A DNA stretch of 3,133 nt from a plasmid, in assembly GCF_057098645.1 (NCBI RefSeq), contig NZ_JBXSPU010000007.1; one strand, 5' to 3'. Positions 1-3,133 of the stretch are shown here, piece by piece. Under the pieces are notes generated by a model. That model did not search any database and was not told where the DNA came from. It saw nothing but the letters and a program-made list of their open reading frames with translations. The first letter of the stretch is position 1, and every line of letters begins with the position of its first letter. The translations under genes and the position numbers were made by a program.

Positions 1-300
1 GATTGTATTGTTTATCGCATTACGCAGAGCAACCTCAATCATCTGGACAAGACAAAAAAAATCGCCAGACAGATCTTGGTAGGCAACGTATGCCCCAACC
101 TTTTCTTGATCAGTAGCGCACCCAAGAAATGTTTCATAGAAAGATAATCTTGGTACAGAAATTGAGCTAATTAAACTTGTTGTATCCATGAAAACTCACT
201 TATCTCTTTACTATGAATATTTTTCAGACTACCATTACAACATTCGAGGAGCAGGCGAACTACCGTTTTTCTGTGTACCTCTAGAGCGTAAAATATAACA

Positions 301-331
301 AAAAAGCCCACTACAGAGTGGGCTTTTTTGT
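301..331. terminator. Bidirectional intrinsic terminator (A-tract / GC hairpin / T-tract)
   Basis: Seen in sequence: A-run 301-306, 8-bp stem agcccact (306-313) pairing with agtgggct (318-325), 4-nt loop acag, T-run 325-330. A-tract upstream and T-tract downstream mean it can terminate on either strand; it would end a minus-strand transcript coming from mobC/cer. Confidence 0.65.
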
Positions 332-430
332 TATATTTATCTATATGAAACAACCAGTTATAGTTATTGTTTCATAATAAGAATTGAATACTCTTCACAA
401 TCCACAACATCAGAAAATACTTTGCTGCCA

Positions 431-458
431 ATTTACCATAACTCCCCTTACGCGCACC
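431..458 (-). other. XerC/XerD site-specific recombination core (cer/dif-like multimer resolution site)
   Basis: Reverse complement of 431..458 reads GGTGCGCGTAA-GGGGAG-TTATGGTAAAT, i.e. 11-bp XerC arm, 6-bp central region, 11-bp XerD arm. The XerD arm is identical to the one I recall for ColE1 cer, and the XerC arm is one mismatch from E. coli dif as I recall it. It sits in a roughly 290-bp non-coding gap of a ColE1-type plasmid. Confidence 0.75.
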
Positions 459-2200: not shown

Positions 2201-2229
2201 AGATTACGATGGGCGCGATATGAACTCAA
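2201..2229 (-). promoter_or_regulatory. RNA II (primer) promoter: -35 TTGAGT (complement of 2224..2229), 17-bp spacer, -10 TAATCT (complement of 2201..2206)
   Basis: Minus strand reads cTTGAGTtcatatcgcgcccatcgTAATCTtaaaaacgaaaaaacc, matching the pBR322 RNA II promoter arrangement (TTGAGA, 17 bp, TAATCT) as I recall it. Confidence 0.65.
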
Positions 2230-2299
2230 GGAAATCCGCAATTAAATTATAAAAGTTTGTGGATTAATGGAAAAACTGATGTGAATCAGCTATTTATCC

Positions 2300-2328
2300 T
2301 TAAGATTTGATGTCAGATATGGTATAAT
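2300..2328 (+). promoter_or_regulatory. Candidate sigma70 promoter with extended -10 (TGgTATAAT 2320..2328; -35 TTAAGA 2300..2305, 17-bp spacer)
   Basis: Perfect TATAAT with TG at the extended -10 position, seen in sequence, in an AT-rich intergenic block. Predicted start at about 2335, pointing rightward at the small ORF and palindrome. Confidence 0.45.
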
Positions 2329-2401
2329 TAACCATTCAAATAGATGGAATAAAAAGTCAACGCTGCCATTAGAACGGCATAAGAAATAGAGGATTATGAA
2401 A

Positions 2402-2545
2402 ATGAATACTAAAGTTCTTTTTGTGAAAAAAGCCTTGAAATCAATTACTTGCGCAATTCTTTCGCTCTTACCGGCTTTAAGTCGCGCAGTAACAGAGTTA
2501 CGTAGCCTTTCGGCTGCGCGACTTAAAGCCGGTAAGAGCTTTTGA
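2402..2545 (+). CDS. Hypothetical small basic protein, 47 aa (49 aa if started at ATG 2396); not on the ORF track
   Basis: Shine-Dalgarno AGAGGA (2388..2393) is 8 nt before ATG 2402. Translation MNTKVLFVKKALKSITCAILSLLPALSRAVTELRSLSAARLKAGKSF, TGA at 2543..2545. Both arms of the perfect 26-bp inverted repeat lie inside the ORF, so it may instead be the 5' part of a structured non-coding RNA. No homolog recognised. Confidence 0.3.
   Translation: MNTKVLFVKKALKSITCAILSLLPALSRAVTELRSLSAARLKAGKSF
2464..2539. repeat. Perfect 26-bp inverted repeat (arms 2464..2489 and 2514..2539) with 24-nt spacer, followed by TTTTG
   Basis: Left arm gctcttaccggctttaagtcgcgcag; the right arm is its exact reverse complement. 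The spacer contains a small secondary hairpin (agcc-tttc-ggct, 2504..2515). Seen directly in sequence. Confidence 0.9.
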
Positions 2546-2569
2546 TTGTATCACATTTTTCCTTAAAAG

Positions 2570-3133
2570 TCAACCGGCTACCTTAAGCTCCCTGCACTTA
2601 ATCCTCCCTATAATCCCCATAACATACTCTATCGTGCAGCGTTCATAAAAGCGCCTATCGTGCCCAATAAACTCAATAAGTTCCTTTTTCTCGTTAGAGA
2701 CGATACTCAAGGCATTCATTAAAAAATTGAACTCTTTCAACATATTATTTATGGCTTGACTATGCGACTTGCAGTGGTGTTTTTTCCAAATAGGCTCATG
2801 GTGAAAAAGTCGATTCCTAAACAAAAGAACTTTATGAAACTCGTCAAACAACGCTTTAACCTTCATATCCCCCCCACCCAAAGGATTCTTCGCATGAGGA
2901 AATGTTTTTGCCTTGTTCTCTGGAGTCCAGATGTAGCACGGCCTTTGCGTATCCCTATATGGGGCATCTAACATATAAACCCAAAAGCCAAAGGTTAGAC
3001 GGCAAATAACATCATCATCCGTATACCTTACGCCACACTCATCTAGCGCTTTTTGTTTCGCATTTAAAACAAGATCCTGAGATTTCTTTGTTTGAGGTAT
3101 AGAGTCGTACCAAGCAGGCCCATGATTAGCTTT
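2570..3133 (-). CDS. Abi_2 (AbiD/AbiF-like) abortive-infection family protein with HEPN-type Rx4H motif; C-terminal 187 aa, N-terminus beyond the window
   Basis: Minus-strand frame is open from the window edge (3133) to TGA at 2570..2572; the track ORF 2570..2974 is its internally initiated part. Motifs: LTFGFWVYML, and FRNRLFHHEPIW matching the Abi_2 hallmark R-N-x-x-x-H-H-x-x-(L/I)-W, which contains the HEPN Rx4-6H signature. AT-rich codon usage differs from the backbone. Family call is from motif memory. Confidence 0.65.
   Translation of the reverse strand, partial: KANHGPAWYDSIPQTKKSQDLVLNAKQKALDECGVRYTDDDVICRLTFGFWVYMLDAPYRDTQRPCYIWTPENKAKTFPHAKNPLGGGDMKVKALFDEFHKVLLFRNRLFHHEPIWKKHHCKSHSQAINNMLKEFNFLMNALSIVSNEKKELIEFIGHDRRFYERCTIEYVMGIIGRIKCRELKVAG

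Follow-up and report, generated by a model that had tools for sequence, protein, structure and literature searches.

What does a small ColE1-type plasmid carry between its origin and its resolution site, and does the abortive-infection (Abi)-like gene found there work alone or with a partner? The stretch considered here, 3133 bases of contig NZ_JBXSPU010000007.1 (the window), raises this question because a first-pass annotation had described an Abi_2/HEPN-like defence gene, abi, apparently cut off by the end of the sequence. We found that abi is complete and that its upstream partner appears to be not a protein but a small RNA (sRNA) gene on the opposite strand. Our preferred reading, to which we give a probability of about 60%, is that this cargo is a two-part abortive-infection or toxin–antitoxin-like module, with the sRNA probably acting as antidote or regulator of the Abi toxin. 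The idea of a plasmid-borne Abi gene is correct but already published (the PD-T4-5 plasmid gene; abi-like cargo of ColE1 plasmids), and what is new is the sRNA gene, which is well supported and previously undescribed.

The window is a whole circular plasmid. A megablast search of PLSDB returned at least 12 records, each exactly 3133 bp long and 99.9–100% identical; they belong to E. coli and Salmonella isolated from humans, pigs, poultry and water. Each matched in two pieces, being the same circle opened elsewhere; NZ_CP116992.1 is an exact rotation whose first base is window position 2577. The apparent truncation of abi arose because the circular record was opened within the gene. The minus-strand open reading frame (ORF) that had been placed at 2570..3133 is present and comprises codons 64–250 plus stop of an AbiF/PD-T4-5-like HEPN protein, and the N-terminal 63 residues lie in frame in the first 189 bases (1..189, minus strand; codons 1–63, MDTTSLISSISVPRLSFYE...EVALRNAINNTI), running from an ATG and continuing at 3133 over the circular junction. 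Joined as 189..1 and 3133..2570, abi is one intact ORF of 250 amino acids (aa), which rules out a truncated gene. Its junction is unbroken in rotated records, and NZ_CP019897.1 encodes the identical 250-aa protein contiguously. In all records this cargo gene is labelled 'hypothetical protein', and it is often divided by the start of the record. Extending the sequence over the junction thus recovered the N-terminus of an undisrupted gene, and profile searches pointed to no unrelated family.

We are confident that the 250-aa product is a HEPN protein of the AbiF/PD-T4-5 type. It carries the HEPN Rx4-6H motif as R169-N-R-L-F-H174 (2801..2818, minus strand), invariant in 48 homologues, within the longer motif FRNRLFHHEPIW (residues 168–179; window 2786..2821, minus strand), and a second motif, LTFGFW, stands at residues 109–114 (2981..2998, minus strand). 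Both motifs had been quoted in the first-pass annotation, and their invariance in the alignment marks them as family hallmarks rather than chance matches. Columns S11, Y18, E52, R56, N57, W71, G112, W114, W132, F141, R169, N170, R171, H174, P177 and W179 are invariant across the 48 sequences. The homologue search gave 63 relatives, mostly ~250 aa and on short contigs, and more distant relatives match PF07751 and bear the name 'Abi family protein'. Among profiles, PADLOC PD-T4-5 matched at E = 6.6e-30 (102 bits; residues 4–229 against profile positions 8–255 of 309, ~80% coverage) and PADLOC AbiD at E = 0.0029; an NCBIfam search gave no match. The assignment to an Abi_2/HEPN-type protein therefore stood, but the description of the catalytic motif as embedded in the Abi_2 hallmark calls for a caveat. 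Of the 48 aligned relatives, 14 pass Pfam Abi_2 (PF07751) at E ≤ 1e-3 (30 at E ≤ 0.1; best 2.5e-11), whereas the match of the query alone is weak (i-E = 0.017, 15.8 bits) and covers residues 33–102, with the RNRLFHH motif outside it.

Structure prediction agrees with this placement. AlphaFold2, run on the 48-sequence alignment, gave an all-helical model (pLDDT 95.9, pTM 0.91), and the top and only strong match in a fold search was the AbiF HEPN toxin 8vz6. A profile-to-PDB sequence alignment set RNRLFHHEPIW opposite RNSCCHHARVW of 8vz6, placing R169/H174 on R210/H215 of PbAbiF, the two residues whose double mutant is reported to be inactive (PMC12373285). The protein is a divergent, distant member of the AbiD/F–PD-T4-5 HEPN group; PD-T4-5 proper is ruled out by 102 versus ~440 bits on the PADLOC model and by ~25% identity over 199 aa. 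Ribonuclease activity and a role in phage defence are predicted from this homology.

No conserved protein neighbour of abi was found among the homologue loci of the 250-aa clade; what is conserved is the DNA just upstream. When the window was compared with the homologue loci by blastn, ~130 nt upstream of abi was co-conserved, and better than the gene itself: in an Aeromonas plasmid, this stretch is 79.5% identical and the coding sequence (CDS) 66–71%. In an alignment of 11 loci, a ~55-nt block is nearly invariant even at 45–55% protein identity, and it is preceded by a GC-rich hairpin with compensatory changes. Here lies a small RNA gene of ~90 nt, at ~242–334 on the plus strand and thus opposite to abi. 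Its candidate sigma-70 promoter (207..235, plus strand) has a −35 box TTTACT at 207–212, a 17-nt spacer and a −10 box TACCAT at 230–235. Then come a conserved 36-nt hairpin (246..281, plus strand; GAGG-AG-CAGG-CG-AAC-loop-GUU-UU-UCUG-UGUA-CCUC), in which the internal-loop bases are invariant, a conserved single-stranded linker, UAGAGCGUAAAAU (282..294, plus strand; family consensus from 280, UYUAGARYGUAAA), and an intrinsic terminator (295..334, plus strand), a stem-loop plus U-run (326–331) that is bidirectional in this plasmid.

The same layout is found in all ten complete abi-linked copies: a sigma-70-like promoter, a gap of 8–14 nt, the hairpin (family consensus C(G/A)AGGAGC-N3-CGAAY-loop(3–13 nt)-RUUUU-N3'-GUGUACC), the linker UYUAGARYGUAAA and a stem-loop followed by at least five U. 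The promoter-like site stands at a fixed position and ranks in the top 0–11% of local background in 10/10 loci (≤6% in 8/10). The terminator hairpin with at least five U on the sRNA strand is likewise present in 10/10, whereas some loci lack a U-run on the abi strand.

Comparative evidence supports both the structure and the strand. Across 16 different copies, 98.3% of the cells of the proposed 11-bp structure are paired, compared with 87.6 ± 1.5% in 500 shuffles, none of which reached the observed value. Double changes affect five pairs in 23 cells (0/500 shuffles), and registers slid along the alignment pair at only 35–67%. The 14 strand-informative cells all point the same way: read on the plus strand they give G.U, and read on the abi strand A.C. 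As folded by minimum free energy, the plus strand at 243–334 forms exactly the hairpin plus terminator (deltaG = −37.9, z = −6.2), whereas the abi-sense leader is unstructured (z = +1.4). A structured RNA on the abi-sense strand, like the AbiF leader, is disfavoured on these same measures, with 90.3% versus 98.3% pairing and every wobble cell contrary. Rfam holds no family for the sRNA; its only matches were sub-threshold ones to Thr/Trp/Phe leaders and miscellaneous sRNAs, which arise because the terminator hairpin drives them. Taken together, we consider it likely that this is a real, transcribed, structured RNA.

Is the sRNA tied to abi, or does it merely lie beside it? The full sRNA gene is present in 10/10 close-clade loci with complete upstream DNA, which span plasmids, integrative elements and a chromosome, and two further loci cut by contig ends (L128 and L130) retain partial copies. 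Relative orientation is constant, the flanking genes all differ, the spacer ranges from 20 to 134 nt, and the linkage is kept down to ~45% protein identity. The contexts are diverse: other small plasmids, some with a ColE1-like origin; an Aeromonas ParA plasmid; a site beside an insertion sequence; small integrase/primase elements, where the unit stands behind an AlpA-like gene; and the Lonepinella chromosome, in which the abi homologue is a single-gene insertion between djlA and dusC-like genes. On balance, we favour a functional link between sRNA and abi.

Some of these loci share further features. A gene for a 90–97-aa HTH_17/AlpA/excisionase-like protein lies directly upstream of the terminator–sRNA–abi unit in L007–L009, L127, L129, L131 and L132. 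It recurs in small plasmids and integrase/primase elements and is absent from this plasmid and from L010–L012, which rules it out as a conserved partner; the abi–sRNA module may have been captured from an AlpA-bearing element of one of these kinds. In the gap that separates the abi start from the sRNA promoter, CTATG(A/G) words are repeated just 5' of the start codon in L132 (~600–700) and also in L129, L131 and L137. L132 has four tandem 11-mers, ACTATGAGCYA, and the window has an inverted CATAG only.

The opposite view is that the sRNA gene has nothing to do with abi function and is a mobile sRNA or terminator module in its own right, beside which the ancestor of the clade came to lie by chance. 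Its support comes from the distribution of the RNA. A covariance model of the sRNA found no match near 100 loci of distant Abi_2/PD-T4-5 relatives (≤39% identity; ~330 kb), so that among Abi relatives the sRNA is specific to this clade. Conversely, when metagenome and viral collections were scanned with a degenerate DNA pattern, this recovered the plasmid itself, one further abi locus (L137) and several copies beside which neither tblastn nor profile searches found an Abi relative. One of these follows grcA in a bacterial chromosome (L146). In two (L136, L147), the promoter scores 11/12, and after ~750 nt an array of eight Pro/Thr tRNA genes follows on the same strand; another has a tRNA-Arg gene 13 nt downstream (L141). 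L140, L144 and L148 belong to a 341-kb IMG/VR contig in which the neighbouring ORFs match phage families (PHROG) at E = 1e-42 to 1e-69, with no evident sRNA promoter. L139 is a further stand-alone hairpin copy. What speaks against chance is that the gene accompanies every complete close-clade locus in constant orientation while flanks and spacer vary, and that the linkage has outlasted protein divergence to ~45% identity. In addition, upstream DNA that is better conserved than the gene is known from the AbiD/F group, where it is also required for cloning the genes (PMC12373285, PMC12737573, PMC13064643), and it recurs in two other ColE1-type plasmids (L004:1843–2142 versus L005:1790–2089), in which the upstream 128 nt are 93% identical and the CDS 80%. 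We therefore regard an unrelated sRNA gene as quite improbable. The L004/L005 clade encodes a 220-aa Abi-like protein (PADLOC PD-T4-5 ~1e-16), and its conserved upstream DNA consists of a hairpin plus ~85 nt; this clade may have an RNA partner of its own.

How would a module of this kind work? By homology, Abi would be a HEPN ribonuclease that dimerises with R169/H174 at the dimer interface; once unleashed, it would cut RNA and stop growth of the phage-infected cell, and on a multicopy plasmid it might also penalise plasmid loss. The ~90-nt sRNA, predicted to start ~55 nt before the abi ATG and to be transcribed away from abi, would hold the toxin in check. Our favoured route, put forward tentatively and at less than even odds, is direct binding to the protein, as with the AbiF non-coding RNA (ncRNA). 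Recognition by protein is favoured because the unpaired bases are near-invariant across distant hosts. An alternative or additional route would be for the sRNA to pair with abi transcripts that originate in the co-directional upstream gene and run past the bidirectional terminator which that gene shares with the sRNA.

This second route, taken alone, amounts to a cis-antisense regulator of type I-like character: abi would be made only by terminator read-through, and its 5' untranslated region, fully complementary to an abundant sRNA, would lead to degradation or silencing of the mRNA. The arrangement of the genes fits such a scheme, with the sRNA on the strand opposite to abi and, in every context, a co-directional gene and then a hairpin ahead of abi (mobA here; an AlpA-like gene, djlA and others elsewhere). 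No separate abi promoter was found. In L012, moreover, the sRNA and abi genes physically overlap: only ~10 nt separate the −10 box of the sRNA from the start codon of abi, and the abi mRNA there must therefore start inside or beyond the sRNA gene, which keeps the cis-antisense model alive. A pure antisense RNA, however, needs no near-invariant unpaired nucleotides across Escherichia, Aeromonas and Pasteurellaceae; the stand-alone copies have no overlapping target; and the structural homologue AbiF is neutralised by direct RNA binding. We thus consider a purely cis-antisense regulator possible but doubtful, and retain the protein-binding antidote as the preferred form of the model.

Several observations weigh against a two-part module as a whole. 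The sRNA promoter in the window scores only 8/12, at 6% of local background, and neither a promoter scan nor manual inspection gave a convincing sigma-70 promoter for abi itself. Pairing of the sRNA in trans with the abi ribosome-binding region gave no signal, with z ~0 in 9/10 loci, L012 being the exception through its overlap, and this form of regulation is not supported. The sRNA lies on the strand opposite to the toxin, unlike in the type III layouts that we compared, AbiF included, in which promoter, RNA, terminator and toxin share one strand. The abiF motif RF03085 was not detected in the window (E ≤ 0.1), at 150–450 (E ≤ 10) or in 16 related loci (E ≤ 1). As for the protein, it falls below the Pfam Abi_2 threshold by itself and shares only ~25% identity with PD-T4-5 proper. 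Finally, hairpin copies exist with no Abi relative nearby, and they argue that the sRNA is not exclusively an abi accessory and has, or had, a life of its own.

A broader proposal takes the opposite-strand sRNA to represent a novel class of antitoxin RNAs that would serve AbiF-like HEPN toxins, distinct in its inverted geometry and in its motif, and the stand-alone copies from huge-phage-like sequence, some upstream of tRNA arrays, as phage-borne antitoxin mimics that disarm Abi. We regard this as speculative and improbable as it stands. If true, the pseudo-ToxI strategy would have a second instance in nature in these phage-borne mimics, directed here at a protein lineage proposed to be ancestral to Cas13.

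The plasmid setting bears on what the module is for. The contrast between AT-rich cargo and a balanced backbone, already remarked on in the first-pass annotation, was confirmed at 37.6% GC for the whole cargo (2230..3133 plus 1..430) against 50.8% for the backbone, the abi CDS itself being 40.4%. The gene is thus AT-rich cargo in a variable slot of a ColE1-type plasmid, and more than 5000 ColE1-like plasmids match the backbone. Homology to other ColE1 plasmids ends at ~2197 and picks up again at ~428–431, and the edges of the slot are exact: on one side is the RNAII primer promoter, TTGAGT-17-TAATCT (2201..2229, minus strand), and on the other a cer-like XerC/D core, GGTGCGCG-TAAGGGGAG-TTATGGTAAAT (431..458, minus strand), where backbone homology resumes at 424–431. 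On related backbones, the same slot holds NERD, NYN plus HTH, PD-T4-5 proper or the 220-aa Abi-like protein, and abi-like genes have been reported among ColE1 variable-region genes (Ares-Arroyo et al., PMC5864857). The differing defence-like genes in one slot suggest cassette exchange there, possibly mediated by Xer.

The module also varies little between the plasmids that carry it. It is present at ≥99% identity in 27 of 5,426 complete E. coli genomes, its gene always annotated as hypothetical. Variants of the plasmid (for example, NZ_CP067239.1) differ by 3–5% over their whole length, with divergence concentrated in the backbone, while the 900-bp abi–sRNA module is 99.3–100% identical across those variants and the protein 100% identical. 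A conserved module on diverged backbones implies either recent spread of the cassette or stronger constraint on the cargo. In E. coli strain 44, the module occurs at 100% within two chromosome records, NZ_CM132959.1 and NZ_CM132951.1 (~3.38 Mb), as either a plasmid integration or an assembly artefact.

Such conservation (~99.7% module identity on backbones 3–5% diverged) could also be read as the mark of plasmid addiction, in which the module serves primarily in post-segregational killing for a partition-less multicopy plasmid and phage defence is absent or incidental. A toxin paired with a labile RNA is the logic typical of plasmid stabilisers, and nothing else of obvious benefit is encoded on the plasmid. 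Nevertheless, the nearest characterised relatives, PD-T4-5, AbiF and AbiD1, were all found via phage resistance, close homologues are also found in chromosomes and integrative elements, where plasmid addiction is irrelevant, and the plasmid is already equipped with a cer-like multimer-resolution site and present in high copy number. Addiction as the primary function is therefore unlikely in our judgement, and a module that acts in phage defence is preferred.

The rest of the plasmid is largely as the first-pass annotation had outlined it, with an ori/rom/mob backbone. RNAI (2095–2195) reaches 95.9 bits in Rfam, where the gathering threshold is 47, the annotated Rop CDS lies at 1256–1450, and a ribbon-helix-helix (RHH) MobA ORF is found at 648–971 (NCBIfam MobA, 6.8e-33). 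The window thus has the RNAI/RNAII antisense-controlled origin and the Rop of a ColE1-type replicon. PLSDB types the plasmid as mobilizable despite the absence of a relaxase gene; the small RHH MobA accessory protein is the only mobilization protein encoded, and an oriT-like region is seen at ~990–1070, with an inverted repeat at 1027–1068. Mobilization would need a relaxase in trans. RefSeq also lists a 37-aa 'replication initiation protein' at 1927–2040 on the plus strand, inside the ColE1 RNAII/origin region, which is probably an annotation artefact because ColE1 replication requires no plasmid-encoded initiator.

A further AT-rich segment (2231–2569; 34.5% GC) separates the abi stop codon from the RNAII promoter. 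It contains a perfect 27-bp inverted repeat (2464–2539; deltaG ~−55, z = −9.6 and −11 on the two strands), a 49-aa plus-strand ORF annotated as hypothetical (2396–2545), which gave no NCBIfam match, and a promoter-like site ahead of both (2300–2328, plus strand). As a partner of abi, this segment is ruled out: it is in no homologue locus and occurs only in this plasmid lineage (23 records).

In practical terms, a previously 'hypothetical' cargo gene of a widespread plasmid can now be named, and an undescribed, clade-linked sRNA gene stands beside it in an arrangement unlike the type III toxin–antitoxin layouts that we compared. Should the sRNA prove to be an antitoxin, it would widen the range of RNA pairings for AbiF-like HEPN toxins, the proposed ancestors of Cas13; it would also provide a compact ~1 kb module in which RNA-controlled ribonuclease defence could be tested, with the phage-borne copies as candidate anti-defence RNAs.

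Among known systems, PD-T4-5 provides the closest profile. It was described on an E. coli plasmid as a single ORF that causes abortive infection, a distant relative of AbiF/D (ECOR34 gene RCQ99930.1, 314 aa; Vassallo et al. 2022, PMC9519451). The plasmid studied here likewise carries a single Abi ORF, which the PADLOC PD-T4-5 profile matches, and on related ColE1 plasmids that slot is filled by PD-T4-5 proper (L003, 444 bits; L006, 440 bits). The two proteins nonetheless differ in length (250 aa here, 304–314 aa there, with a C-terminal extension that is absent here) and in motif (RNRLFHHEPIW here, RNRLSHNDCIW there). The ~25% identity over 199 aa was measured to the protein of L003 (444 bits) rather than to RCQ99930.1, and the conserved sRNA was not found beside PD-T4-5 proper. 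Lactococcal AbiD, AbiD1 and AbiF (PF07751) are also HEPN Abi proteins, often plasmid-borne, and there, too, cloning requires upstream DNA that is better conserved than the gene; against this stand the sub-threshold Abi_2 match here, the marginal PADLOC AbiD score (E = 0.0029) and the Gram-negative hosts. ToxIN shares the logic of an RNA antitoxin, and the stand-alone hairpin in a phage-like contig is reminiscent of phage antitoxin mimics such as pseudo-ToxI. The ToxIN toxin, however, has an unrelated fold, and its RNA, ToxI, forms a tandem repeat that the toxin processes.

The most instructive comparison is with AbiF (PbAbiF–AbiFr, PDB 8vz6; C. difficile AbiF-RCd22), a type III toxin–antitoxin system in which the active site of the HEPN dimer is blocked when a hairpin RNA encoded directly upstream binds to it (PMC12373285, PMC12737573, PMC13064643). 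Sequence identity to AbiF is only ~15–20%, the RNA here is encoded opposite to the toxin gene and points away from it, and it has one hairpin, unmatched by RF03085, where the AbiF RNA has two. Yet the toxins are structural homologues with the same Rx4H catalytic residues, and both systems place directly upstream of the toxin gene a structured RNA of comparable size that has conserved unpaired bases and ends in an intrinsic terminator.

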